64,000 nucleotides of DNA from Heptranchias perlo (taxonomy: Eukaryota): the NCBI RefSeq assembly GCF_035084215.1, contig NC_090356.1, positions 13,206,001 through 13,270,000 on the forward strand, written 5' to 3'. The notes under the pieces were generated by a model, which was given only the letters and a program-made list of their open reading frames with translations, made no database searches and had not been told where the DNA came from. Of the stretch, positions 5,835 to 60,245 are shown one piece after another. Each line of letters starts with the position of its first letter. Positions within the stretch are counted from its first letter, which is position 1. The position numbers and the translations under genes are program-made.

Positions 5835-7753
5835 GGGCCCGATATTACCATGGCGGCGGGTTCGCGGCGGGGGGTCGATTGGGTGTGTGGGTAACGCGCC
5901 CGGTGAAATCAGTCTGCCCCGTGCACAATCGCAGGCTGATTGGATCCACTTACCTGTTGTTCCGGGTTCCCCGCTGCTAAGCTGCGCGGCGGGCGGACTG
6001 CGCATGCGCAGTAAGGTCTGTCAGCTGGAGGAGCTCTATTTAAAGGGGCAGTCCTCCACTGACTGATGCTGCAAGAAATAGGAAAAATTACAGCATGGAG
6101 CAGCCCAGGGGAAGGCTGCTCCCAGGTTTAATGATGCCTCATTCCAGCTCTTATTGGATGGGGTGAGGAGGAGGGGGAGGACAGAGATCTTCTCCCTGGC
6201 GGGCGGGAGGAAGCGGCCTGCCTCTGCCACCAAGAAGGCCTGGCTTGAGGTGGCAGAGGAGGTCACCTGCACCACCAACATATCGCCCACCTGCATACAG
6301 TGCAGGAGGCACTGCAATGACCTAAGTAGGTCAGCCAAAGTGAGTACACTTACTCATTCCCCTACACTCTGTCTGTCACATCACCCCTCACACCCACTCA
6401 AACCTCATCCTCATCTTACCTGCACTTACTCACCTCGCCACTACTCATCCCGCCACTACCACTCAACCCAATCCTCATACAATCTCATGGCTCTATCTCA
6501 TACTCACCCTCTCATACATCTCTTTCACAATCAGCCTCACTCAACCTGCCACTACCTGTGCTGCAGCCACAGGGCATGCATCACATATGTGCAGTAGGAA
6601 GCATAAGGCAAACGTGTCGTGAGCATGAAGGGGATGCACAAGGGTGTTTGAGAGTTTGTCATGGTTTTTACTTATATTTAATTTCTGATCAACTCACATT
6701 ACATATTATATTGTCACCACTACTGCCATGTCTTTGCGAATCTTGTCTGGTTTGTGCAATAATGCCCATTTCCTGAGGATCACTATGAAGACCCACAACT
6801 GATGCCACCCGTTGTGTCACTGCAGAGTGGGTATAGGTGTATTTGCAGGGCTCTTTTGTGCAGACGACTGAGAGACGACGGCGATGTCCCCGGTTGCACC
6901 CTGGAAGGATGCGGAGGAGAAGTTGTTGAGGGCAGCGGTGACTTTGACAGTGACAGGTAAGAAGATGGTGCTCGGGCCAACCGGGAGCAGCTCGGCATGA
7001 AGGAGGCTGCAGATGTCCACGACTACATGTTGAGTGACTCTGAGCCTTCGTGTGCTCTGCTGCTCAGAGAGGTCCAGGAAGCTGAGCCTCGGTCTGTGGA
7101 CTCTGTGACGCATCTCTCTCTGCGGTTGCCCTCCCTCCTGCTGTGCAGGTGGATGTGTCACAGCACTCTGTTGTGGAGCTCCACATGTCAGAGGTGGATG
7201 GCGTGGCCGGCGAGGCTGGTGACGCTGTTCGCCCTCCGAGGAGGTCTTGACTGCAGCTACGGCGGCCCCATCCGGAAGATGCACATCTGAGGGGGTCCGC
7301 AAGGTAGGTACATGTGTCTGGACACTGGGGTAAATGTGCAAGATGGTGAGTTTTATTGTTAGGAGGAGGGTGGTGGAGGCCAAACTTTGTCCAAGGTGAC
7401 AGAGTGGCCTCCTGCAATGAGTGAGGGTCTCCTCCACCCCCCCCCCAACCTGTCAAATGGACCTTTGCCACACGTCCATTTGAACTGGGAGTGTTTCCCC
7501 CAGTACGGGAAACAGTCCCAGTTGTTTGCAAAATCCCAACCCTCCTAAAATATCATGTTAATCAGGTCTCTAAACGACCTGAAATACCTAAATAAATACC
7601 TTAAGTGGCACCACATGCGGGGGCTGCGCGCGCATGTCAGCGCGTCAGTGGGGAGCCCGGAAAATGGGGCGGGTTGGAGCCGCCCCGGTAATCCCCGATT
7701 TTCGTAGCCCCCCGACAGGAACGCACCCGATCGCGGGTGCTAAAATCGAGCCC
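5835..7753 (+). mobile_element. Non-autonomous PIF/Harbinger element carrying a Myb/SANT-like DNA-binding exon
   Basis: TIRs GGGCCCGATATTA / TAAAATCGAGCCC; 3-bp target duplication AAA. ORF from ATG 6095 reads MEQPRGKAAPRFNDASFQLLLDGVRRR...ATKKAWLEVAEEV...CIQCRRHCNDLSRSAK and ends at an AAA|GTGAGT donor. Confidence 0.82.
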
Positions 7754-11446: not shown

Positions 11447-11532
11447 CTGACGAAGGAGGTAAGCTCCGAAAGCTTGTGATTTTCAAATAAAACTGTTGGA
11501 CTATAACCTGGTGTTGTAAGATTCCTTACATT
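11447..11532 (+). mobile_element. Short Penelope terminal fragment with a hammerhead core
   Basis: CTGACGAAGGAGgtaagCTCCGAAAGCTTGTGAttttcaaataaaactgttggactataacctggtgttgtaagattcctta, nearly identical to 821-902; the 5' strand of stem I is missing. Confidence 0.85.
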
Positions 11533-11719
11533 ACTCCTAGACAAGATACAGAAAGAAGCTTGTCACACATAATTAATCTCTTTCTGACTGTGAATTATGG
11601 TTAGAGCTCCTTCAAAATTTCTTCTCTTGTTCCTTTCAAACTCCAAATCCACTGTCCGACACACTCTTCCTGCATCCCCATTGTGTGGAAATTAGGACTC
11701 ATTTGCACATCTTAATTAA

Positions 11720-12481
11720 CTCAGGAGGCGGGTCGGGCCTTAAAACCTTGCAAGGTGGCTTCAGGCCTTCATTTTCCTCGAATTCCCGATTTCAACCCCG
11801 AGAGTGCCAGGATTCCCGGTCCTTCTGTTTTACACTTCATGAAAGAAGGTGAGAAGGCCCGTGACTAACAGGTAAGTGCCAAGAAAGGCACAGCTTGTGG
11901 GCTCGGAGGAGCAGGAGTGCTACCCCCAGGCCCAACTAGCGTACCTGCATTGACCCCCTCCCCCCCCGATCATGGACACCCGACCCCCGATCGCGGTCAC
12001 CTGACCCCCGATCGCAGACCTCCTGCCTCCTCCCCTAATGATCCCCCACTCTGATCCTCCCATCTCCAACCCCCAATCCTCCCCCCCCCCCACTCTGATC
12101 CTCTGACCTCTGATCCTCCTCCTCAATGATCGCAGACTCCTACAATTACCCCCGATCCCACCCCCCATGACTCAAGACCCCCATGCCAACCCATGCCCAT
12201 CTGTGCCAACCTATGCCAACCCATGCCCACCCATGCTCCAGTGCCCGCCCATGCCCCCCCCTCCACATCCATACAAACAAGGAATTACCTGCAGACTTAC
12301 CTGAAGACGTCCTCTCCCCGGCTGGTCTCCCGTCAGACTGAGACCAACCTGTCAATCAGGCCGGTCAGTCGGACGGGAAACCGAAAAAAAAAGAGGTCCT
12401 TACGTTAAAATCATACTAATGGGTTTCCCGACTTCAATTTGACCCCCCACCCCCTTCTTGGCTCGGTTTTAAAATTGAGCC
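11720..12481 (+). mobile_element. MITE-like element related to the previous family, with an internal C-rich/CCATGCC repeat
   Basis: Shares aggtaagtgc...gcttgtgggc..ggaggagcaggagtg...ccaggcccaac, a C-rich core and an aaaattgagcc end. Confidence 0.6.
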
Positions 12482-13289
12482 TCACCAGTCCAAACCTACA
12501 CTCTGGCTGGGAGCTAGTGACTTGTGAACAGCTGAATGCCATGTCATTTCTTCTTGATGCAAGCTTTTTCCCTAAATTTCCCCCTATATTGATACACAAG
12601 TTGTTTACATCTCAGGAAGAGTACTTTTCCTGACTCAAGCAATTTAGACTTCTGCTTATTCAGAGGAGCGCTTTCACATTTGTGTGTTATTTCCCAATTC
12701 CATGGTCATTTATAAGATCAAACATTACCTCATGCATGATCAGCATGTGGTCAGAACTTTTTGTACCTTTCCATCCTATACATTATTTTCAACTCAATTT
12801 TTTTTACTGTGACGCATTGTTACACTTTTCATTTTTTATTGCATTCCTACACAAAATGTGCACCCAATTCCAATAATTTCAACAAATGATCAATACACAA
12901 CATGACGATGAAAACATAATCATGTATGTAACTGGCCACTGTCCAGGAAGCAACCATAATGCCTTCATTGTGCGGTAGTCCACAGTATTCACATTGTTTG
13001 AAAGAGAAGAAATGTTGGAAGGATGACTCTCCGGGTTATCCGCTACAAAATTGACTGCTGACCCCACTGAGAAACCACCTAACCAGCAGCAGAGCACCTT
13101 GGCCTGGACACCTCAGCGTCTGTTTGAATTTTCTCAGCTGCCACCTTCACTTTAGAGAAAAGTATGCTTTGCAGCTTAGGCACAATGAAAGAGTCTGCAA
13201 AAAAGTGACGGTGATACACAGTGCTTGAAATAGTACCTCCGAGATGGTGCATTAGTTTCTATCGTGCTTTATGGGACACACATAAGTGA

Positions 13290-13530
13290 GGAGAAATCTA
13301 ATGTTCGTCTTGCTCCTGATACCAAAACAATTCTTCCTCATTTGCAGCCAGGTATGAGAGCTAGGTGACTGCATTGACTTAATTGCTATCTCCCTCCATT
13401 CAGCTGGTACCTTTATTGGAGGGTGGCCTTCAGCTTCACATAGGACCACCCACTTTTGGTGCACATCCTGCAGCAAGACCTCCAATTCTTCAGCATCAAA
13501 GAGAGGAGTGTTGCTCATATCTCTCCACAA
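13290..13530 (-). pseudogene. Decayed Harbinger Myb/SANT-like domain fragment
   Basis: PLFDAEELEVLLQDVHQKWVVL...AEWREIA...HTWLQMRK, the same F..E.LL..V / W..IA / TW.Q.RK pattern as the ORF at 6095. Confidence 0.6.
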
Positions 13531-13855
13531 CCTGTTTGCTGCATTGTGATGTAGATGATTACAAAATCGAGGCTTATTTGTTACCTTGATCTCAGAGAAC
13601 AGGTAATGTACCGGTGAGAGTTAAGCATTGTACGGCTATCTTATCTGCTGATTTAAATTGCTTTTGTGTATACTTTCTCATAAGATGAAACTTTTTTCAA
13701 AAATTTGTGCCTCTCAATCAGACTGAAATATTTGTTCTTTTTTCAATCTGTATCCAGTACCAGGGAGGTGGAGTGCAATACAAAAACTTTTCTAATTACA
13801 TTTTTGTTTTAGAGTTTGAGCTAACGCCTGGATTTCGAACACACGTGCATGAAAG

Positions 13856-13870
13856 ATGGGACACTCTGAA
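13856..13870 (+). CDS. TNFRSF-like coding exon 1 (MGHSE); the exon probably starts at 13813
   Basis: Acceptor tttttgttttAG at 13811-13812, then ATG GGA CAC TCT GAA and a GTGAGT donor. Phase 0 matches the next exon. Confidence 0.6.
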
Positions 13871-16800
13871 GTGAGTTATTTGATGCAGTGAACTTTGACA
13901 ATTTCTTTAATTATTTTCCTGACTGTATTGCAGCAGAATTATTCTTTGAACCAGTCTAAGTTATCATTAAAAACAAATATTTTATTAAATATAAAGCTTT
14001 TGGTCAAAAATATTTAATAGCATCAAAATTAAAACACTTAACAGTTTTTCTGAGAAGCTGAAGGGTCCACTTGGTCCTGCTGGCATAGCTCCGTGATGTT
14101 TCTTCCCCATTCCCTTCAAGATACTCAACTGATTTCAAAAGAGAGTCTATGCACACAAAGGGTTAACATCTTGTTAAAAGGAAATATCTGTTTTGTATTT
14201 TTCAATACCAGACTTCCTTCTTCAAATGCACATGACATGTGAATGACTCATTCTTCACCAAAAAAGAGGATGTGGTGATCTTGCACCAAATTACAGCACA
14301 TTTACATTACAGTACAGCTAACACCATAAACCTGAATTCAGCAGCAGTACTAGCCTAACGACTCTGAAGGAATGGAGGCTCTCTACATTTTTTTGGCCGT
14401 GGGCAGGTTGAACACTCAGCTCATGCATAAAAGCCCGTAAAAAGATTTTCTGCTTGCTGGCCTATATGAACTTTTCTCATGCAATGGGGGAAGTTTGCAA
14501 CCAGAAATTAAAGTTACAGTTGCTGCTTTCTGACAACTGCTCATCTGCAAGCTTGCATATGCAATGGCAAGCGTTAATAGCAACATGGATGTAGTAGATA
14601 TTTCCCTTTAGGTCTTTTGAACTCCAACATGTTAAACCTTTGCCTATTGGTAGCACTCTAGAATGAGTTAGAAGATTGTGGGTTCAAGCCTCACTCCAGA
14701 GACTTCAGCACATAATCTAGGCTGGCATTTCAGTACAGTACTGAGGGAATGTCTTTCGGATGTGACGTTAAACTGAGGCCTGATGTGCCCTCTCAGGTGG
14801 ACGTAAAAGATCCCATGGCACTATTCAAGGAAGAGCAGGAGAATTCTCCCCATCGTTCTTATCCATAATTATCCCCCAATCAACATCACTAAAACAGATT
14901 ATCTGGTCATTATCTCATTGCTGTTTGTGGGACCTTACTGTGTGCAAATTGGCTGCCACGTTTTCTGCATTACATCAGTGACTACACTTCAAATGCACTT
15001 CATTGGCTGTAAAGTGCTTTGGGACGTTCTGAGGTCATGAAAGGTGTTATATAAATGCAAGTCTTTCTTTTAAGGAGCAAGCTTCAGGCTACAGAATATA
15101 GGTTGTGACCAATTGTTATTTTATTGATGGAAATATAGTGGAGATCAACAAAATCTTTTGAATGGAAATGAATGAATCTGGGGAAATGTCAAAGCAAACT
15201 CTACTAGGTCAGCCCACAAAGATGGTTCCCCCCCATAGCTGCCACATGAAAATTTGCCATCATACATCAGCACCTTGTATACAATAAGATCCTTCTCCGG
15301 TTATATGAAGCATGGCTTCCTTCTCCTATTCTTCAACCAGCCCATTTTTAAAATTGTGTTATGTTAAGTTATTGTGCAGTAACAAAGGGATCAAAGACTT
15401 TAGGGGTAATTTTAACTCCCAAGAACGGGTGGGTTGGAGGCAGATGGGCAGTAAAAAGTTTGATTTTAAAGCGGAACTGCATCCCGGCTCCACGTGCCCA
15501 CTTCCGGGTTTAACCCAGGCATGTTAGCATGTGCACGCGCAGCAGAAACCCGGAAGTCCCCTCCCTACTAAAGCTGACGGGCCGATATTTAAAGGGGCAA
15601 TGTACCTCATAGCGATAGTTGAGGCATTTAATTTTTTGTGTATTAGAAATGTCAACCAAATTTAACCTACCTGTTTGGGTTTCCCATCGCTTCTGATTCA
15701 CGTCGGGGAAAGCAGGCGAGACGGGCCGGATCCATGAGGTGAGTGCCTTTATTGCACTGCTTGTGGGCCAGGATGAGTAGGAGGGCTTCATCCACGCCCA
15801 ACAAGCTCACCTGGTGTGATCGGACCTCAGCGATCAGCCGACAACCCCCCCACCCCACCCCTGATCTCTTCCACAGCCCACGATCTCTTCCCCCCTCCCT
15901 CCCCCCTCTCCAATATTCGCAGCTCCTTCCCTTCCGACAGCCTGTCAATATGGCTGCGCGGCGTGTGGGACACCCGTAGCACAAATACCCACTTTCATTC
16001 GAGTTGCGATCACAGATTGAGATGCACTCACTTGACTTCTGAGTTCCTCACGCTAAGATCTACACACGTGCTAGGTTCCCGGCTCCAAGCTAAAATCATG
16101 CCCCTCACGTCTGAATTGTTAAGTTAATGAACACAATTATTGGAGCCTTTTTCTGAATTATCATCTTAATTTACCATTGGACATAAATATCACATGGAAT
16201 TGTAAACAATACTGTACTTATTGCTAAGCAGTAAATATTTACTATTGGCGCCTGTTTATTACCAAAAGCGTGCTACTATGTCCCATATCGGATTCGCCTC
16301 TTATGTTTATGGGAATGCCACTGTTCGCTTCCCCACCTCCACGTAGGACAGTGAAGAGAGTATTTATTAAGTGAGTCTTATTTCCATTTAGATTTGTTGC
16401 ATCCTCTTATTGATCTTTAACTTGCAACTGGTGACCAGTTGTGGCTCAGAAGAATATAATTTTCAGGAATTGTGCTGTCCCATGTGCCATTCAGGTGAGT
16501 GACAACAACCTTTTTGAATGAATGTTGCCACACAAACTTCTGTAAGTTTTCAGCTGTTTTAAGAAGTGGTAATATTATGGTTTTGCTAATATAAGAATTA
16601 ATATAAGAATTACATCATATATTATGTTTTTTTCCCTTTTAAAAACTTTCATATGTGATATTTAAGATGTGTAATTTGGAAAGTTTAAGCAAAACTTAAA
16701 GAAGTAGTATATCAGCACTGTGCAAGCACCTTCTTGTGCCAAGACTTGTCCCAACATCTTCAATAAAAGTCATCTTCAGATTTTGGGTAGATTCTGAGGA

Positions 16801-19800
16801 ATGCTACACAGTGGTCTTGATCAGTTTTACAGCTGGAGATACCAGTACAATATATATTGTATATACGCCTGGATATAAAGAAAAAGGGAAAAGACTTGCA
16901 TAACTTTGGTTTCCTGGCTAATTTCACACAAATATTGTCTCAGTTTCCATCAACAACTAGAACCACTCATAATGGAAAAGATTTCAAACCCAGTGCTGCA
17001 CACAGACCTGGTCATGAAGTTCAAATTCTAACCTATTATTATCAATATGAAACATAACATCTGTAATCTGCTACAAATTTTAATTAAAACCTTGGTGATA
17101 CTGCAGAAGTGTCATCATATCCTGGGAATATGTAATGCATCTGATAAGGACAGAAATTCTAATCTCTAATGTTAGAATATTAACCATACATTATATAATA
17201 GAGATTAGGACAGACAATGGAGTGAGATGAAAACAGTAATCTAATCTCAGAGTTCAGATGTCATTTAAAAACTAATTTTGTTGCAGCATTCTGGTTGACA
17301 CAGCTACCTTGTTTTTCCTGAGTATCTGTTCTTCTTATGAAGATGATTACATTTTCTGTTGTAAGCTGTATTTGCATGGTTTTCTTTGATTTTCTACAGT
17401 GAAACTAGAAGAATCTAACATGGCAATTCTGTGACTCCAGCTTTACCTTTTGCAAGTAATGCTCTAGCTTTTTAATTTTTCTTTTTATTGCAGGTACTCG
17501 TGTTTTGAAACACTGTACATCAGCATCATCTACCACATGTGTTCCCTGTGCTCGTGGAACTTTCACAGACCACCCAAATGGTTTCGAAAAATGCTTGAAG
17601 TGTAAATATTGTGATCCTGGTAAACATTTAGTAACAATTCTTTTAACATGTTTTCATAATCTAAACTTTTCCCATGAAGGTTTATCCAATTGCCTTTAGG
17701 AATACACAGAACTGAGCAAAATGGACTAATTTCTAAATTTCTTTAAAGAATTAGTTGTATTCCTCTGCTACTTTGTACGTTTTAGAAAATTTGAACAATC
17801 AAATAAGTTGATTTTTGACCAAGGTATTTTATAAACGGTATTGTGGTTCGAAGGGTCTGTGTCAGAAACTTAGCTGAGTGTCTGACACAAACAGAAACCC
17901 ATGGCTACTGTTGAATTTAGTCACTTCCCACAATATGGCTACAGTAGCATGAAATTGAAATATCTGGTTATTCGTATTCAGTTGCGTAAATGTGATATAG
18001 AACCAGTAATTAGTCTTAAGATTTGGTGGAATAATTAACAGCTGTGAAGGGGAAGAGCGTATTTGTTTAAGGTTATGTAAAATTAAGTTTCCAACGCTAA
18101 CCCAGTAACAAAAAGAAACCTGGTTTTTATCATACCGCTTGTTTTGCTAAGTTGTATTGAGTATGAAATTCTATGAAATAAAAGAGTAGCTTTTATTGTT
18201 TCATGTTTTGCTTGCATCCTACAACCCTTAAGACCAAGGTTGATGTGGGTGACAACAAATTTAATTTATTTGAACCTTAATGATTTTTTTAAAATTGTAG
18301 AGCTGGGACTTGAAACTCTGAAAGAATGCAATGACACTCAGAATGCATCGTGTGACTGCAAAGATGGGTATTTCTGCTTAGCGAGAACAAAAGATGGATG
18401 TCACATGTGCACAAAATTTATCCCACATATTTTCAACGAAAATACAAAAGCCAAAGGTATGACATTAGATTGATAATTGTTTCGTGGTGGATCATGCAAT
18501 ATTGCAGGTCAGACATACATTGATTGAATATGTATATGTGGCCACAAACTATGGAGTTAGTAACAATTGGTTATGGTGCGTTTTCGGATCCATAACCGAA
18601 AGCAGGCACGGAACACACGCTCCAACTGGGAAGCCTGAGGCTGGCCCGAAAATGGGCCTTAGGCCTCATTTCAATAAATTAAGTGAGCTGCCAGAACCTG
18701 TCATGCCTCCATAGGCAGGTTGCCTAGTTCAGGCTTGCTAGCACTGTCGACGACACCTTCCACCACTTTGCTGATGATTGAGAGTAAACTGATGGGGTGG
18801 TAATTGGCTGGATTGGATTTGTCCTGCTTTTTGTGGACAGGACATACCTGGGCAATTTGCCACATTGTCAGGTAGATGCCAGTGTTGTAGCTGTACTGGA
18901 ACAGCTTAGCTAGAGGCATGGCTAGTTTTGGAGCACAAGCCTTCAGCATTACAGCCAGGATGTTGTCGGGGCCCATAGCCTTTGCTGTATCCAGTGCACT
19001 CTTGATATCACATGGAGTGAATCGCATTGGTTGAAGACTGGCTTCTGTGATGGTGGGAATCTTGGGAGGAGGCCGAGATGGATCATCTACTCTGCACTTC
19101 TGGCTGAAGATGGTTGCAAACGCTTCAGCTTTGTCTTATGCACTCACATGCTGGGCTCTGCCATCATTGAGGATGGGGATGTTCATGGAGCCTCCTCTTC
19201 CCATTAGTTGCTTAATTGTCCACCACCATTCATGACTGGATGTGACAAGACTGCAGAGCTTTGATCTGATCCGTTGGTTGTGGGATCACTTAGCTCTGTC
19301 TATAGCATGCTGCTTCTGCTGTTCAGCACCCATGTAATCCTGTGTTGTAGCTTCACCGGGTTGGCATCTCATTTTTAGGTATGCCTGGTGCTGCTTCTGG
19401 CATGCTCTTCTACACTCCTCATTGAACCAGGGTTGATCCCCTGGCTTGTTGGTAATGGTAGAGTGAGGGATATGCCAGGCCATGAGGTTACAGATTATGG
19501 TGGAATACAATTCTGCTGCTGCTGATGGCCCACAGCGCCTCATGGATGCCCAGTTTTGAGCTGCTAGATCTGTTCTGAATCTATCCCATTTAGCATGGAG
19601 GTAGTGCCACACAACACAATGAACGGTGTCCTCAAATTGAAGACGGGACTTCGTCTCCACAAGGACCGTGTGGTGGTCACTCCTACCAATACTATCATGA
19701 ACATGTGCATTTGCGACAGGTAGATTGGTGAGGACGAGGTCAAATAGGTTTTTCCCTAATGTTGGTTCTCTCACCACCTACCGCAGGCCCAGTTTGGCAG

Positions 19801-21350
19801 CTATGACCTTCAGGACTCAGCCAGCTCGGTCAGTAGTGGTGCTACCAAGCCACTCTTGGTGATGGACATTGAAGTCCCCCACCCAGAGTACATTCTGTGC
19901 CCTTGCTACCCTCAGTGCTTCCTCCAAGTGGTGCTCAACATGGAGGAGTACTGATTCATCAGCTGAGGGAGGGCGGTAGATGGTAATCAGCAGGACGTTT
20001 CCTTGTTCATGTTTGACCTGGTGCCATGAGACTTCATGGGGTCCGGAGTCAATGTTGAGGACTCCCACTCCCTGGATAGTTACATAATTTGTATTATGTA
20101 ACAATCCTCCACTCATTGCATTTTGCTGGAGAAATAATCCTGTTGTACTGGGTTTTTATAGAATCATAGAAGTTTACAACATGGAAACAGGCCCTTCGGC
20201 CCAACATGTCCATGTCGCCCAGTTTATACCACTAAGCTAGTCCCAATTGCCTGCACTTGGCCCATATCCCTCTATACCCATCTTACCCATGTAACTGTCC
20301 AAATGCTTTATAGAAGAGACTCTGGTGTAGTAATAGACTGGTGAGTAAATAGACTCTGTTTGCTGTAGTTTATGAGTAAATGAAAATCACAAGTCCTGCC
20401 CCTCCACCTCGTTAGCTGATAAAGTGGTGTCAATATTCACATTGTAAGAAAAAATTAATAATGTTGTCTTCACAATGCTCTGATAATTCCAGAACTTTCA
20501 TTAATGTTTGTACGATTAATGTTGGTAATAATAGCACCATTATTTTAGCCCATATTACTCTGGTCACAGTTATTTTTTTATAATTCATATAGGTAATCAT
20601 AGGCAACATGAAGTGAGACCAACATCAGAGTCTGGAATAACTCACGGCGACACCATCATTAAGTTTATGGGTCAGGATGAAGCACAGAATCCATCACCAC
20701 TTGGGAACAAAACCCAAAGGAGAAAAACTATTTCTAAACCAGAAATATCAGACACATTCTCAAAGGGGGAGTCAGCTTCAGAAACAATTCCAGGGAAACT
20801 CAAGTTTGGGCACAGACAGGACCCTGTAACAATAACAAAAACACTAACGGCACTGATGCAAGAAATTGATCAGGCATTTCCAAAAGAATCTTTAAAGCTG
20901 CAGGAGGCAGGGAACACAGCCACTACAAAATTACAAAATACTGTGCAGACCAACTTGACAAACATTCAAAGTGTTTTGCAAACTGGGCTAGCAGATATTC
21001 GAATTACTATTCAGACTGGCATGGCAGGTCTGCAAAGTGCTATGAAAACTGGCATGACAGACATTAAGAATGCACTGCAGATTGGAATGACAGGCATTCA
21101 AGAAGCTATAAAGTCTGGAATTGCTGATATCAAAGGTATCACTCAGGTTGACAATACTCTGAAACAACAACAGGCAAATTCACAGTCTAACATGATACAA
21201 ATGACCAAGCAGATTGGTTCACTGGTCACCCTATTGACAAAACTTGCCTCGAACCAGACAGTCTCCTTCATTCAACTTAAAGATATTACTTGTAAGCCTT
21301 CTATTAAAACAGAGGTGGTGCAACTGCAAGGAACGGAAAAGCAACCTTAA
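13856..21350 (+). CDS. TNFRSF14 (HVEM)-like TNF receptor superfamily gene, 5 coding exons: join(13856..13870,16392..16494,17494..17619,18301..18456,20593..21350), 385 aa, apparently lacking a transmembrane domain
   Basis: All introns are GT-AG with compatible phases (0,1,1,1). Total 1158 nt = 385 aa + stop. Protein: MGHSE|ICCILLLIFNLQLVTS (signal peptide) CGSEEYNFQELCCPMCHS|GTRVLKHCTSASSTTCVPCARGTFTDHPNGFEKCLKCKYCDP|ELGLETLKECNDTQNASCDCKDGYFCLARTKDGCHMC..., which has TNFR cysteine-rich-domain spacing. Exact orthology is not resolved. Confidence 0.8.
14645..15070 (+). mobile_element. DeuSINE-like (SacSINE1/AmnSINE1-related) SINE
   Basis: tRNA-like head (tggtagcact...gggttcaag), central gatgtgacgttaaactgagg...aaagatcccatggcacta, tail ...aaggtgttatataaatgcaagtctttc. 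Related copies at about 31140-31430 (+), 50170-50370 (-) and 61640-61690 (+). The family name comes from recall. Confidence 0.75.
15403..16104 (+). mobile_element. MITE-like element in TNFRSF-like intron 1
   Basis: GGGGTAATTTTA ... TAAAATCATGCCCC imperfect TIRs; colinear with 4499-5313. Confidence 0.75.
16392..16494 (+). CDS. TNFRSF-like exon 2: signal peptide and start of CRD1
   Basis: tttccatttAG acceptor; encodes ICCILLLIFNLQLVTSCGSEEYNFQELCCPMCHS; G|GTGAGT donor. CCxxC is typical of TNFR CRD1. Confidence 0.85.
17494..17619 (+). CDS. TNFRSF-like exon 3: CRD1/CRD2
   Basis: Long polypyrimidine tract + cAG; 126 nt encoding GTRVLKHCT...TTCVPCARGTFTDHPNGFEKCLKCKYCDP; GTAAAC donor. Confidence 0.9.
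18301..18456 (+). CDS. TNFRSF-like exon 4: CRD2/CRD3
   Basis: ttgtAG acceptor; 156 nt encoding ELGLETLKECNDTQNASCDCKDGYFC...GCHMCTKFIPHIFNENTKAK; G|GTATGA donor. Confidence 0.9.
18735..20070 (-). mobile_element. LINE ORF2 internal fragment (APE endonuclease to RT N-terminus) in the last intron of the TNFRSF-like gene
   Basis: YRPPSADESVLLHVEHHLEEALRVARAQNVLWVGDFNVHH; PVHKKQDKSNPANYHPISLLSIISKVVE. Same family as 57340-60245; contains stops and frameshifts. Confidence 0.92.
20593..21350 (+). CDS. TNFRSF-like terminal exon: polar linker plus 11-residue-repeat amphipathic helical domain
   Basis: Acceptor ...tttttttataattcatatAG at 20591-20592 puts the phase-1 junction (G+GT) in frame with the 245-aa ORF 20613..21350. 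Several AATAAA follow (21484, 21642, 21684, 21781). Confidence 0.72.
20943..21140 (+). repeat. Coding tandem repeat, 6 x 33 nt (11 aa)
   Basis: VQTNLTNIQSV / LQTGLADIRIT / IQTGMAGLQSA / MKTGMTDIKNA / LQIGMTGIQEA / IKSGIADIKGI. The DNA units align at a 33-nt period (e.g. attcagactggcatggcagg, atgaaaactggcatgacaga, ctgcagattggaatgacagg). Confidence 0.9.
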
Positions 21351-21483
21351 GTTACACTGAGGCCCATGAGACAGACCTTGGGTAGGTTTCCAGCTCTGGT
21401 TCCTCAGCTCCACACAAAGGAGCATCCATTAAGGATACATAGCCTGGAAGGTGAAGCACACACCCAACAAATATCAAAAAGTT

Positions 21484-21489
21484 AATAAA
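21484..21489 (+). terminator. First candidate polyadenylation signal of the TNFRSF-like gene
   Basis: AATAAA about 130 nt after the stop codon, followed by U-rich sequence; more hexamers at 21642, 21684, 21781. Confidence 0.5.
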
Positions 21490-22514
21490 TACATTTATTT
21501 TTCTGGACGGCACTTTCCCCTTTTAGTTTCTTCCTATAACTTAACATAATTCATCTTGGCTTTTGCATTTTTCTCAATTCTTTTCAATAATGCTGGGCTC
21601 CAAGACTTTCTTTTGACAGAGTTTACTTTGACAGATGTTGTAATAAATGAAATGCTGTTTAAATTGAATATTGCATGAATGTCAATAAACCTATCACACA
21701 ACATTTCACGGAATTCTGTAAGGAGTGCATGTCTTCAAAGAGTTGCTTAGATGGCTTGGCCTAAGAATGTGCATTGTTATAATAAACCGTGTTTGGCATT
21801 ATGTAACAAAAAACTTGCCTACAGTCTACTATGTGGTGCATTGTGCGAGGAAAGTACCTGACAGCGTGTGCTCATATTAATAAACTGCTTTATTCCATCA
21901 GATGTTTGGTGCACTCCATTCCAAGTTGGGGAAAGAGTCATATTGAATGCAAAAGCTAAATGTTCAGCATAAACCTACCTGACAGCTGCTATTACATATG
22001 GGACACTTTTTATTGTAATTGTGGGTTTTCATGCAAGCACTTTCTGTTCTCTACACATGGAGATAATCAGCAAAAGACGCCAGGAAAAAGCTTACATTTG
22101 TTGAGTTGTGATACTTTTCCCCTCCATTTTTCTACCCTAAAGGCACTGGGGGTATTGTTTGCTCCTGGCATGAGATCAAAGTGTTTCATGAACACAGAAT
22201 TGCTCCTCTGCCACTCCTTCCCCTCTGCATTCCCTAGTGGGGAATAGTGCCAACTGGGGAAAGGGATTGGGTGGGTGGGGGGGGGGGCACGATTCTGGAG
22301 AAAGGGAGTATGGCTGAAGGAGGTGAATCGGAGAGATCAGAACCAGAAAGTGGCTGAAGAAAGGGGAAGGGCAAAGATTTGTTGCTGCAGCCAATATACG
22401 CACTCAAATAAACACAGAGGGAGACCTTAGATCACACAGACTAGTGCAAAAGAGCTCGACGTGGCAAGGAAGGTCCTTACAGTAGGGACCTGGTAAGATG
22501 AGGCAACTTTTCAA

Positions 22515-36200: not shown

Positions 36201-39200
36201 CTAGTGAGAGGTGGTATATAGTAACTGGCCAACTGCTACTTGTGTTAAACAAACATTTTTTAATAAATAAAAATTGAAATATTTTGATTTCTGTTTTATA
36301 AATATTAAAATGTTAAATTCTTAAAAGTAATGTTTCTATCAATAATTTTAATACGTGTTTGTATATATAATATATCTTTAAATGTTTGATTAGAAGCAAT
36401 TATGTAATGGTTCTATTTATTGATTGCTGTAATGGAAGAAAACCTAATCAAAGACTGTTAATGAGACTGTTGAAACTCTTCTGACTGTTGTGCAGCACCT
36501 GTGATATCTTGCAGCTTCTCAATTTCTGATTTGGCTGAATCTTGATTACTGGAACTGAGCAAGAAGAATTGTTCTGTACCGTTGTCGCTAAAGAAGACTG
36601 GGGAGAATTGAAAGTGCTTTCACTGAGTATTTGCTTCAAATGTTACCGAGAAGAGCATTTCCATAATATTTGATTGCGTGGCCCATAAAATTGGATAAAG
36701 ACTGATTTCAAGTGTACAAAGAATCAAGTCACATTGATCTTTAATCTGTACAGGCTTGAGAAGATATCAGTGACTGGAATATTGCCGGTGCATGGAAAAA
36801 CTGTTATTTTTTGCGATTTACATGCGTTTGTGAAGAAGTTTGACAAGAAGTTCAGATATTCTAGCATGGATCATTATCTCGAGACTTTCATTAAATATGG
36901 ATGTTTTAAGTACGCCTTAATTTTACATTGCATGTCTTGAGTTGTATTGGTTTATCACGAGAGCAGGCCAGTGAGTAGATCAGCACGGAGGTTAAAATGG
37001 GTTCTCTGCGTTTTTCTTTTTTTTTCTTGTGTTCATTACCATACAGGGATCAAAATGCTTATTTGTGCAGTACATGCAGATTTTTAAAAATGGCTTACCT
37101 AACATAGCTGTGGAAGTATAAATTGGCATAAAAGATGCTGTGGGGTTATACCAGAGTTTTTAATAAACGACATTACCATTTCACGAAAAACCCAATGTAA
37201 TCCATGTATGTGGGGATCTGGTCTTCAGTGACTTTAATGGTCTGTTTTTGGCAACCTGATAATTCTTGCACAGTATTGAAGTCGATTCTGAATGTCTGGG
37301 TTTGAATTCCTGTCTCAACTGCTATTTGAATATGGTTAACTTCTGGCCAAATTATGGCAATTGCTGAGATTTTAGTTGGGGAATCTTGCACTTTTGGAAT
37401 ACTAATTCTCAGGGGAGGGATGCTGTCTTGTGAGACTTAATTCATCTCAGTAAATGTTCAGTTTTCTAGTATAAAGTGACGTTGATAACTATGGAGAAAT
37501 CTGCATTTCATATTGGCCTGCATACTTGAAAGAAGGTGAATAGGAAAATAGAAGTTGAGAAAGTGTCATGTAAAAACTGCATTTGGATCAGAGCATTGGA
37601 TCTAAATGTACTTTAAAGCAGCTAGAATTGACAGTTAAGTAATTCTGCTTGTCTTGACAATGTTGAATCCCTGGAGCTGTGCTTTGGTTACAAACTGTAG
37701 TTTCTCATCAAGAAATAAATTGTAATGGTGTTTTGATCTGAATTGACGTAAGTTTATGGACTAGCCAATCTGCATCTTTGGCAAAAAGCATTTGGTCATC
37801 TCCAGATTCTTTAAATTGTTCATTTTTGTTTTTTCATTGTTCTACTTTTGGTTGTGCTACAAAAGTAACAGAAAATTGAGCATTTTGAACCCTGTGTGGC
37901 TGTTTAACTTTTCATTTTAAAGCATTTACTCTCAGAAATTAGCAGTATATTGGGTGGGTTGCCGCAACGTTTTTGTTGTCTTTTTCAGGAATTATATGAA
38001 TGACAGCCTGCGGACAGATGTGTTTGTCCGGTATCATCCAGAGACCATTGCCTGTGCGTGTATCTACTTGGCTGCTAGGGCACTTGAGGTTGGTGAACAT
38101 CTGCTTCCTCCCCACAAACACACACTTTTCTCTCCCCTATTGAATGTTTTGTCTTGCTGGGATGTGGTTCTACAGTTTCTGGCCAGTTGTCCAGTCTCAC
38201 AGCCAAGTAGCCATTCTTCATATGTAAGTCAGGCACTTCAACTGCAGAGGAAATCATAACCAATCTTATCAAGCAAGAAGTCATCGGTTGTGGTTGTGAT
38301 CCCCGACTTCTCTTTTTAAAAAAAAATCTTGCTTCCTCTGCCACACTGACCCAAAGGCGATAGAAACCTATTGCCCTGGCTAAGACCAGCAAATGGAGCA
38401 CAGATTAAATCTGGGTCCTTCTGGCCTATATGGTTTAGTACTACTCTGGGCAGTGACTTTACCCTGTAGGTCATTGGAGGAATGAATGCAGTCTTTAAAA
38501 GGAGTGTTAAGTATAGAGGTTGACTATATGCATGCAACTTTTAGTCACTAGTTTGTTTGACTCTGCAGAGCCAGTAACCATAAGAATGACCTGGGTACAG
38601 TGTTTGTAATCCATTTTGTCTAGGTTAATGGAAGTATTTTGAGTTGCATTGAGAATGCTAAACTCAAGTAAGTTAATTTATTCAGCATGTAATCTAGTTT
38701 AACTGTTTTGCAGATTCCACTTCCAAATCATCCCCATTGGTTTCTACTGTTTGGAACAAGTGAAGAAGAAATGAAGGAAATCTGTGTGAAAATCTTAAAG
38801 CTCTATACCAGGAAAAAGGTCTGGATCTTTGAGATACAAATTGTTTGTATTGCCTTTTTTTTTCTTTCAATGATAATGAATACAATGGGACTTGCTCTTA
38901 ATTTAGAGATTCAACTATTCTTGCAGGCAAATTTGGAATACCTTGACAATGAAGTTGAAAAGCGGAAGGTGGCTCTTCAAGAAGCGAAAGCTAAAGCCAA
39001 GGGTCTTTTGCCAGATGGTACACCAGCGTTAGATGCTCCACCTAGCTTCTCGCCGTCCTCAAAACCAGGTGAAAACTTTTATTTTGTTATGTTTTGTGAA
39101 ACTAAAAGCAACTTGATTGGATTGCCATTTGTCCTGCTTCTAGTCACCTGATAGTTTTTAGCACTTAACCAGTTACTTCAAACTTAATGTGATAACTCAC

Positions 39201-57339: not shown

Positions 57340-60245
57340 CAGTTGTACAAACTTGCTAAAAAAAAAGTCATAATAAGAATAAAACCGGACAGACCACCTG
57401 GCATCGAACCACTAGGCACCGGACACGACAAAGGCAAACCAAGCCCAGTCGACCCTGCAAAGACCTCCTCACTAACATCTGGAGACTAGTATCAAAATTG
57501 GGAGAGCTGTCCCACAGACTAGTCAAGCAACAGCCTGACATAGCCATACTCATAGAATCATACCTTTCAGCCAACGTCACAAACTCTTCCATCACCGTAC
57601 CTGGGTATGTCCTATTCCACCGGCAGGAGACTCACCAGAGGTGGCGGTACAGTGATAGTCAGGAGGGAGTGGCCCTGGGAGTCCTCAACGATGACTCCGG
57701 ACCCTATGAAATCTCATGGCATCAGGTCAAACATGGGCAAGGAAACCTCCTGCTGATTACCACCTACCGTCCTCCCTCAGCTGATGAATCAGTCCTCCTC
57801 CATGTTGAACACCACTTGGAGGAAGCACTGAGGGTAGCAAGGGCACAGAATGTACTCTGGGTGGGGGACTTCAATGTCCATCACCAAGAGTGGCTCAGTG
57901 GCACCACTGTTGACCGAGCTGGCTGAGTCCTGAAGGATATAGCTGCCAGACTGGGCCTGCAGCAGTTGGTGAGCAAACCAACACATCCTCACCAATCTAC
58001 CTGTCGCAAATGCATCCATCCATGACAGTATTGGTAGGAGTGACCACCGCACAGTCCTCGTGGAGATGAAGTCCCGTCTTCGCACTGAGGACACCATCCA
58101 ACGTGTTGTGTGGCACTATCACCGTGCTAAATGGGATAGATTCAGAACAGATCTAGCAGCTCAAAACTGGGCATCCATGAGGCGCTGTGGGCCATCAGCA
58201 GCAGCAGAATTGTATTCCAGCACAATCTGTAACCTCGTGGCCCGGCATATTTCCTCACTCTACCATTACCAACAACCCTGGTTCAATGAGTGTAGAAGAG
58301 CATGCCAGGAGCAGCACCAGGTGTACCTAAAAATGAGGTGCCAACCTGGCGAAGCTACAACTCAGGACTACATGCATGCTAATCAGCGGAAGCAACATGC
58401 TATAGACAGAGCTAAGCGATTCCACAACCAACGGATCAGATCAAAGCTCTGCAGTCCTGCCACATCCAGTCGTGAATGGAGGTGAACAATTAAACAGCTA
58501 ACAGAAGGAGGAGGCTCTGTAAACATCCCCATCCTCAATGATGGTGGAGTCCAGCATGTGAGTGCAAAAGACAAGGCTGAAGCGTCTGCAACCATCTTCA
58601 GCCAGAAGTGCCGAGTGGATGATCCATCTCGGCCTCCTCCCGATATCCCCATCATCACAGAAGCCAGTCTTCAGCCAATTTGATTCACTCCATGTGATAT
58701 CAAGAAACGGCTGAGTGTACTGGATACAGCAAAGACAACATCCCGGCTGTAGTGCTGAAGACTTGTGCTCCAGAACTAGTTGCGCCTCTAGCCAAACTGT
58801 TCCAATATAGCTACAACACTGGCATCCACCCGCCAATGTGGAAAATTGCCCAGGTATGTCCTGTCTACAAAAAGCAGGACAAATCCAATGCAGCCAATTA
58901 CCACCCCATCAGTCTACTCTCAATCATCAGCAAAGTGATGGAAGGTGTCATCGACAGTGCTACAAAGCGGCACTTACCAATAACCTGCTCACCGATGCTC
59001 TGTTTGGGTTCTGCCAGGACCACTCAGCTCCAGACCTCATTACAGCCTTGGTCCAAACATGGACAAAAGAGCTGAATTCCAGAGGTGAGGTGAGAGTGAC
59101 TGCCCTTGACATCAAGGCACCAAGGAGCCCTAGTAAAATTGAAGCCAATGGGAATTAGGGGGAAAACGTTCCAGTGGCTGGAGTCATATCTAGCACAAAG
59201 GAAGATGGTAGTGGTTGTTGGAGGCCAATTATCTCAGCCCCAGGACATTGCTGCAGGAGTTCCTCAGGGCAGTGTCCTAGGTCCAACCATCTTCAGCTGC
59301 TTCATCAATGACCTTTCCTCCATCATAAGGTCAGAAATGGGGATGTTCACTGATGATTGCACAGTGTTCAGTTCCATTCGCAACCCCTCAGATAATGAAG
59401 CAGTCCGTGTCCGCATGCAGCAAGACCTGGACAACATCCAGGCTTGGGCTGATAAGTGGCAAGTAACATTTGCGCCAGACAAGTGCCAGGCAATGACCAT
59501 CTCTAACAAGAGAGAGTCTAACCACCTTCCCTTGACATTCAACGGCATTACCATCGCCGAATTCCCCACCATCAACATCCTGGGGGTCACCATTGACCAG
59601 AAACTTAATTGGACCAGCCACAAAAATACTGTGGCTACGAGAGCAGGTCAGAGGCTGGGTATTTTGCGGCGAGTAACTCACCTCCTGACTCCCCAAAGCC
59701 TTTCCACCATCTCCAAGGCACAAGTCTGGAGTGTGATGGAATACTCTTCACTTGCCTGGATGAGTGCAGCTCCAACAACACTCGAAGCTCGATATCATCC
59801 AGGACAAAGCAGCCTGCTTGATTGGCACTCCATTCACGACCCTAAACATTCACTCCCTTCACCAGCGCACTGTGGCTGCAGTGTGTACCATCCACAGGAT
59901 GCACTGCAGCAACTCGCCAAAGCTTCTTTGACAGCACCTCCCAAACTCGAGACCTCTACCACCTAGAAGGACAAGAGCAGCAGGCACATGGGAACACCAC
60001 CACCTGCACGTTCCCCTCCAAGTCACACACCATCCCGACTTGGAAATATATCGCCATTCCTTCATCGTCGCTGGGTCAAAATCCTGGAACTCCCTTCCTA
60101 ACAGCACTGTGGGAGAACCTTCACCACACAGACTGCAGCGGTTCAAGAAGGCGGCTCACCACCTTCTCAAGGGCAATTAGGGATGGGCAATAAATGCTGG
60201 CCTCGCCAGTGACGCCCACATCCCATGAATGAATTTAAAAAAAAA
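57340..60245 (+). mobile_element. Near-full-length ORF2 LINE (APE + RT; CR1/L2-group), inactivated
   Basis: QQPDIAILIESYL, YRPPS, GDFNVHH, SDHRTVL (APE); [32 protein letters not shown] (RT); multiple stops and frameshifts; 3' tail ...cccacatcccatgaatgaattt(A)9. Confidence 0.93.

Follow-up and report, generated by a model that had tools for sequence, protein, structure and literature searches.

What does a tumour necrosis factor (TNF) receptor gain by ending in a string of 11-residue repeats? The question is raised by a gene on the forward strand of a 64,000-nucleotide stretch of the shark Heptranchias perlo (RefSeq assembly GCF_035084215.1, contig NC_090356.1, positions 13,206,001 to 13,270,000), here called the window, whose positions are used below. 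A first-pass annotation, made from the sequence alone, had proposed that a signal peptide and about three cysteine-rich domains (CRDs) resembling those of HVEM (TNFRSF14) are spliced to a single terminal exon, giving a soluble decoy whose repeat tail either oligomerises it or attaches it to lipid. We found that this is a conserved, real gene and apparently an undescribed one; it was absent from the titles and abstract starts of the top-ranked literature matches, and supplements of shark genome papers may list the locus. Its product is probably a secreted decoy for LIGHT- or lymphotoxin-type ligands, with a parallel hendecad coiled coil to give it multivalency. Beyond the first-pass annotation, the analysis adds transmembrane-bearing tandem parents upstream, a conserved unpaired cysteine (Cys367), and two further genes, unrelated to this one, that contain homologues of the tail exon.

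Gene structure and transcript

Five coding exons (13856-13870, 16392-16494, 17494-17619, 18301-18456, and 20593-21350) with AG/GT ends encode 385 amino acids without an internal stop. The translation equals NCBI/RefSeq XP_067826184.1 (P0001), an "uncharacterized protein" of Heptranchias perlo, with a tail 100% identical. The exons of the transcript are:

13497..13602, forward strand: non-coding 5' exon, start approximate (contigs of X1 and X2 start at 13504 and 13497), spliced to 13813 with GT..AG
13813..13870, forward strand: start-codon exon, ATG at 13856, five codons, A at -3 and G at +4
16392..16494, forward strand: exon for the predicted signal peptide (hydropathy 1.96; cleavage likely at S21/C22) and the first half of CRD1
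17494..17619, forward strand: 126-nt exon for the remainder of CRD1 and the first half of CRD2 (Pfam TNFR_c6; HVEM alignment)
18301..18456, forward strand: exon 4, 156 nt, for the remainder of CRD2 and a short CRD3; the last TNF receptor (TNFR)-derived exon
20593..21899, forward strand: terminal exon with a phase-1 acceptor; coding ends at 21350, followed by the 3' untranslated region with AATAAA at 21879

Contigs assembled from four runs and placed on 11500-27500 bore out the in-frame five-exon splice that had been drawn, since the junction 18456->20593 (GT..AG) was present in all four. The three upstream coding junctions were seen in 2/4, 3/4, and 4/4 runs, and the contigs of two runs added the non-coding 5' exon. 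Contigs ended at 21813, 21885, 21889, and 21899, the last three just past the AATAAA. The runs, which we took to be RNA by guess, come from one sample in one study. A splice of exon 4 to a transmembrane-containing exon, named by the first-pass annotation as evidence against its model, did not appear among the joints listed for the four runs, nor did exon 4 join any other exon there (six weaker joints lay outside these, and contigs drop rare forms). Two short upstream reading frames, read by eye, lie in the 5' leader at 13555-13824 (spliced) and 13849-13869; the second runs across the main start codon in a different frame.

The protein belongs to the TNFR superfamily (Pfam TNFR_c6, 37.2 bits; cut-off, 29.4), and it lacks the transmembrane segment and cytoplasmic tail of the HVEM signalling receptor. 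The highest 19-residue Kyte-Doolittle mean past the signal peptide was 0.97, compared with 1.96 for the signal peptide itself, in keeping with the earlier remark that the terminal exon holds no membrane-spanning run. No death-domain family was matched in Pfam, the basis for agreeing that none is obvious. Judged from hydropathy only, the protein is predicted to carry a signal peptide without a membrane or GPI anchor, as expected of a soluble decoy.

An HVEM-like ectodomain and its tandem neighbours

Profile search and alignment to solved structures refined the "about three" HVEM-like domains to CRD1, CRD2, and a two-disulfide CRD3, as in HVEM. Human HVEM, with which residues 20-121 aligned without a gap, ranked first among the 29 solved matches at E<=1e-6 (HVEM, 4.5e-23; CD40, 1.3e-15; osteoprotegerin [OPG], 1.3e-8; DcR3, 3.7e-8). 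All 16 cysteines of HVEM CRD1-3 were aligned (16/16), and they are retained in every orthologue model having those exons. By closest relative and shared CRD1-3 cysteine pattern, a placement made without a tree of named vertebrate receptors, the gene falls within the HVEM/TNFRSF14 lineage. The stretch that the window protein retains comprises the first three CRDs, which one paper calls required for ligand binding (PMC13612297).

Two HVEM-like genes of the membrane type lie upstream on the same strand (A, G000:C35:13131439-13152560; B, G000:C35:13189429-13201230), and a third membrane-type, HVEM/CD40-like gene occurs elsewhere (G000:C49:15459810-15471460). All three contain a transmembrane exon, and A and B also have a CRD4 exon; neither exon was found downstream of the window gene by exon scan and tblastn (best E 0.012, no coherent exon). 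The signal exon at 16392-16494 resembles the one heading gene B, and the DNA of the window gene is 67-89% alike to A and B at the exons and their intron edges, which supports tandem duplication. The sequence comparison therefore supports the window gene as a tandem duplicate of its HVEM-like neighbours; the duplicate would have lost its CRD4 and transmembrane exons and gained a copied phase-1 exon as its last. The next gene downstream, on the same strand, is a cyclin L (best match, L2) that starts at window 27072, 5.7 kb past the stop codon. Human TNFRSF14 and CCNL2 are both on 1p36.3. A further exon-like frame follows at 38693-39151.

LINE fragments occur at 19286-20060 and 57360-59966, one at 59100 with Pfam RVT_1. 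A Harbinger-type remnant at 6082-7552 is of very high copy number, with 52,496 first-look candidates, and the 150 that were scored were 90-100% identical. We take its frames to be Myb/SANT-like on the forward strand and a transposase-like fragment on the reverse. As a source of the tail exon, Harbinger Myb-like loci matched in 0/30 and 0/30 cases; the test is a weak one, as the loci span 1.5 kb on each side, and the inspected ones looked internally deleted.

A repeat-bearing tail and its relatives

Four features of the terminal exon are:

20709..20726, forward strand: basic cluster of the flexible linker (aa 173-178), which may bind heparan sulfate
20823..21251, forward strand: helix predicted by AlphaFold2 to run unbroken over aa 211-353 (143 residues; ~21 nm long, taking 0.15 nm for each)
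20931..21128, forward strand: six repeats of 11 residues each (aa 247-312), with a super-period of 22 residues
21291..21293, forward strand: Cys367, the sole tail cysteine; candidate inter-chain disulfide

The six repeats described in the first-pass annotation held up, with a self-identity of 0.30 at lag 11, compared with 0.083 +/- 0.033 in shuffles (0/20,000 reach it), and of 0.40 at lag 22; at the DNA level, identity at lag 33 was 0.58. In most orthologues, four extra residues complete a seventh repeat. AlphaFold2 with a 23-row alignment gave a single helix, not folded back, over model residues 7-149 (mean pLDDT 78.7, pTM 0.35; helix block pLDDT 79-97 over model residues 11-140). A model of the whole protein from 10 rows had a mean pLDDT of 33 and was not used, and a three-chain model of aa 210-375 made without an alignment (score 0.02, mark 0.32) was evidence neither way. 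Searches with the tail added little: Foldseek returned 0 matches for the tail model, VIA-align returned generic long helices (Z 7.1-8.3, 4-12% identity) that were uninformative, and the ESM Atlas gave weak structure rows only, with no usable feature-based match for either tail.

Within each repeat, positions 1, 5, and 9 are large aliphatic residues (77-100%), position 8 is Gly, Ala, or Ser (77%, mostly Gly), and position 2 is Gln, Lys, or Arg. Hendecad coiled coils follow the rule of a hydrophobic a-d-e-h core, and the assignment a=5, d=8, e=9, h=1 yields such a core. One flank of the repeats is basic and large and the opposite one acidic or small, an asymmetry that would suit a parallel bundle. 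Insertions and deletions among copies measure 4, 4, 8, and 11 residues, so that one helix face is kept roughly in register; the exception is a 2-residue deletion in a truncated Carcharodon model. In sum, the repeat pattern favours a coiled coil, and a perilipin-like helix is compatible with it.

The tail search returned 10 proteins from 238 candidates, i.e., the window's own, eight named shark or skate proteins, and an unnamed one near-identical to that of a skate, with identities of 56-69%; further species were gained by cluster look-up. Between sharks and skates (11 species models), identity was 0.64 for CRD1, 0.61 for CRD2, 0.41 for the linker, 0.64 for aa 210-246, 0.61 for the repeats, 0.68 for aa 313-353, and 0.47 for the C-terminus. 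By these alignments, conservation of the tail helix equals that of the CRDs and exceeds that of the linker. Cys367 follows the helix in 10/10 species models reaching that site, and the basic cluster is present in 11/11, as K-T-x-x-[RK]-K in 10 and shortened in Pristiophorus. A furin site at the cluster was rejected because Arg is absent there in 6/11 models. The suggestion that the gene is lineage-specific agrees with its conservation in sharks and skates; holocephalan or bony-fish records were absent from the named matches and from seven strong profile matches, which is weak evidence of absence, and within the searches made the gene may be restricted to elasmobranchs.

Three reciprocal searches of the shark's own genome, each scoring its 150 best candidates, converged on three loci: the window gene, L002 (G000:C42:1310890), and L003 (G000:C14:47009132). 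The exon at L002 closes a gene encoding a signal peptide, an Ig domain, and five hydrophobic segments (Ig-5TM), a layout of which we take CD47 to be the prototype. This uncharacterized gene (G000:C42:1280557-1311640; L002, L011-L013, L038) also encodes, after the segments, a linker rich in Thr, followed by the shared 11-residue module and then by a basic C-terminus; hydropathy predicts a cytosolic tail. Its orthologues (P0026-P0031) come from the ray Narcine as well as from sharks. At L003, an exon of a RING/B-box/coiled-coil TRIM gene continues past an internal donor, and two other sharks share this extension at 68-71% identity. In this exon (G000:C14:47008922-47009851), the donor follows ~65 codons, and the 313-aa read-through frame with the module is kept in Chiloscyllium and Scyliorhinus. 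Cysteine is absent from the matching 35 residues in 7/7 Ig-5TM copies and stands at differing places in the two TRIM copies.

All three exon copies have a phase-1 acceptor, which points to exon shuffling. L002 and L003 share 27 of their first 45 exon bases (0/20,000 shuffles), whereas the start of the window exon shares only the 14-15 of 45 expected by chance with either, and neither that start nor aa 210-246 matched the paralogues significantly. Homology of the window copy was instead judged from the non-repeat residues 313-357, which scored 62-68 (0/500 shuffles), compared with 54 for the best of 143 generic repeat proteins on the 45 non-repeat residues after the repeats. The repeats alone were rejected as proof, since generic 11-mer proteins scored up to 134 on them and the shark copies 103-115. 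In a 19-row unrooted tree, copies from the same host gene clustered together (support 100/99, 89/89, and 97/97), and batoids fell within two of the three groups; thus, at least the TNFR and Ig-5TM copies are older than the split between sharks and rays. A profile search of 1.84 billion representatives found seven matches at E<1e-30 (six named elasmobranch records and one skate-like unnamed), after which scores dropped from 188 to 100 bits.

Seven of the 10 own-genome matches were discounted, L005-L010 as 33-bp minisatellites and L004 for five stops in the match and a location among LINE pieces. The minisatellite frames mimic 11-residue amphipathic repeats and are possible raw material for them. 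The best non-shark profile matches were salamander paralemmin-3 proteins (P0032, P0033) with a long 11-residue repeat insertion, a likeness that is likely convergent.

We tentatively suggest that elasmobranchs evolved a portable clustering exon of their own, which came to lie in three unrelated genes, and that its HVEM copy gave vertebrates another independent secreted decoy in addition to OPG and DcR3. This would be a natural trimer or tetramer, locked by disulfides and suited to a trimeric ligand. A clustering role would make sense both outside the cell, for the window protein, and in the cytosol, for the other two hosts. The shared module is itself undescribed, and its hosts are called "uncharacterized" or misnamed (TNFRSF11B-like, TNFRSF16-like) in databases; the skate orthologue of the window gene carries the automatic name "TNFRSF11B-like".

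Probable decoy action and comparison with known systems

Secretion, a parallel oligomer, the disulfide, the ligand, and decoy action are all inferred, and together they suggest the following mechanism. The signal peptide would direct the protein out of the cell, where the 143-residue helices could zip into a parallel coiled coil of 11-residue period, most likely of three or four chains, and Cys367 would likely lock the chains by a disulfide. The 75-residue linkers would let several CRD1-3 heads engage one LIGHT- or lymphotoxin-type trimer in competition with membrane receptors, and the protein may be held at heparan sulfate through its basic cluster. In the literature, most soluble TNFRs are described as monomeric and as requiring an oligomerising domain before they act as high-avidity decoys (PMC7905041), OPG dimerises via its C-terminal Cys400 (PMC9464236), and sharks have LIGHT (PMC7674686). 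The weak binding of monomeric soluble receptors, the use OPG makes of its C-terminal domains and Cys400, and the presence of LIGHT in sharks together give the decoy its logic.

Several observations count against this account. The ligand is assigned from likeness to human HVEM alone, and all read-based expression evidence comes from the one sample, possibly the source of the RefSeq model. The Carcharodon model ends at 315 aa with the 2-residue deletion in its helix, and Cetorhinus isoforms skip or begin inside exon 4 (models only). In addition, the helix is rich in Thr, Gly, and Gln and nearly uncharged (8 charged residues of 66, net 0), its Lys and Arg are confined to one flank, as described for the lipid-binding helix of Plin4, and its 7 Gly in 66 residues are high for a soluble coiled coil.

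The alternative that survives best, which we nevertheless regard as unlikely, is a perilipin- or apolipoprotein-like amphipathic helix lying flat on lipid, with the receptor riding lipoproteins or vesicles and clustered by the particle, not by a coiled coil. The 11-residue periodicity (hydrophobic period 3.63 over residues 247-312), hydrophobic moments of 0.22-0.45 (windows starting 210-309), low charge, many Thr, Gly, and Ala, and the one-sided basic flank, as in Plin4 (PMC8064757), are all consistent with it, and Pfam adds matches to Apolipoprotein, though weak ones (E 2e-5 to 2e-3). However, those matches (PF01442) scored 18.5-24.8 bits where the cut-off is 90, no Perilipin/PAT family appeared in Pfam at E<=1 for P0001, P0002, and P0009, and no perilipin-sized vertebrate relative stood among the seven matches at E<1e-30. 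Each repeat also has three large-aliphatic positions, whereas the helices of perilipins 2-4 are described in the same paper as being without large hydrophobic residues, and the tail has no proline in aa 231-353 and one aromatic in its 143 helix residues. Identity with an exchangeable apolipoprotein was rejected on the bit scores and the lack of proline-punctuated 22-mers, and identity with a perilipin on the lack of a PAT/perilipin family.

An oligomer could also serve as a signal and not a sink, cross-linking BTLA- or CD160-like receptors or membrane LIGHT (reverse signalling), or carrying and stabilising the ligand. CRD1, the face that human HVEM presents to BTLA and CD160, is retained and as conserved as CRD2, and HVEM Gly60 is invariant across models. 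We regard this role as improbable. Every model has Thr, Ala, or Ser in place of Tyr61, which is critical for BTLA and CD160 (PMC13612297), and Gly72 is lost as well; Tyr61 is also missing from both membrane neighbours, A and B, so its loss does not single out the window gene. That the fusion is a tolerated by-product, i.e., a non-secreted or non-functional chimera with a roleless tail, is very improbable, since the damaged-looking models in two lamniform sharks are outweighed by a terminal frame open in skates as well as sharks (when substitutions alone were simulated, at 0.2 changes/site, 0.9% of 2,000 exon copies kept an open frame), a helix more conserved than the linker, and the full set of 16 CRD cysteines. 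The white and basking shark models (P0010, P0003, P0019), which are short or skip exon 4, hint either that the gene is decaying in Lamniformes or that the assemblies contain errors.

If the clustered-decoy reading is true, the gene would be a separately evolved soluble decoy of the TNFR family from cartilaginous fish; no group more distantly related to mammals has an immunity built on antibodies and T cells. The gene would also let one trace how a membrane receptor turned into a decoy, by tandem duplication and a last-exon swap, and a helix that oligomerises by itself would be a new natural clustering tag.

Among known systems, HVEM is the closest, being the best solved relative with the same 16 CRD1-3 cysteines, and the window gene adjoins HVEM-like tandem genes and cyclin L2; the window protein differs by its long helical tail and by lacking CRD4, the transmembrane and cytoplasmic exons, and Tyr61. 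OPG and DcR3 each have four CRDs, and DcR3 ends in a short basic heparan-binding tail. Like OPG (TNFRSF11B), the window protein is by prediction a secreted-type TNFR, and Cys367 parallels Cys400 of OPG, whose C-terminal part dimerises, binds heparan sulfate, and has one terminal cysteine (PMC9464236). In contrast, OPG has death-domain-like regions (PMC7674686), whereas the window tail is an unrelated predicted helix and the CRD likeness is far weaker than to HVEM, which argues for a separate origin. Identity with OPG was rejected on these E values, the lack of a Pfam death domain, and the single-helix tail. DcR3 (TNFRSF6B) is likewise soluble and is reported to bind LIGHT; the 251-aa tail with its repeat helix and the E value of 3.7e-8 led us to reject that identity as well. 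Perilipin 4, CCDC90-like proteins, and phage tape-measure helices share the 11-residue period and fill the weak part of the profile search, but they match the repeats only, and their likeness is probably convergent. The nearest parallel in design is the engineered TNFR-Fc or oligomer-fused receptor, which joins an ectodomain to an oligomerising domain for avidity (PMC7905041); the window protein would be a natural counterpart, with an oligomer that is predicted.

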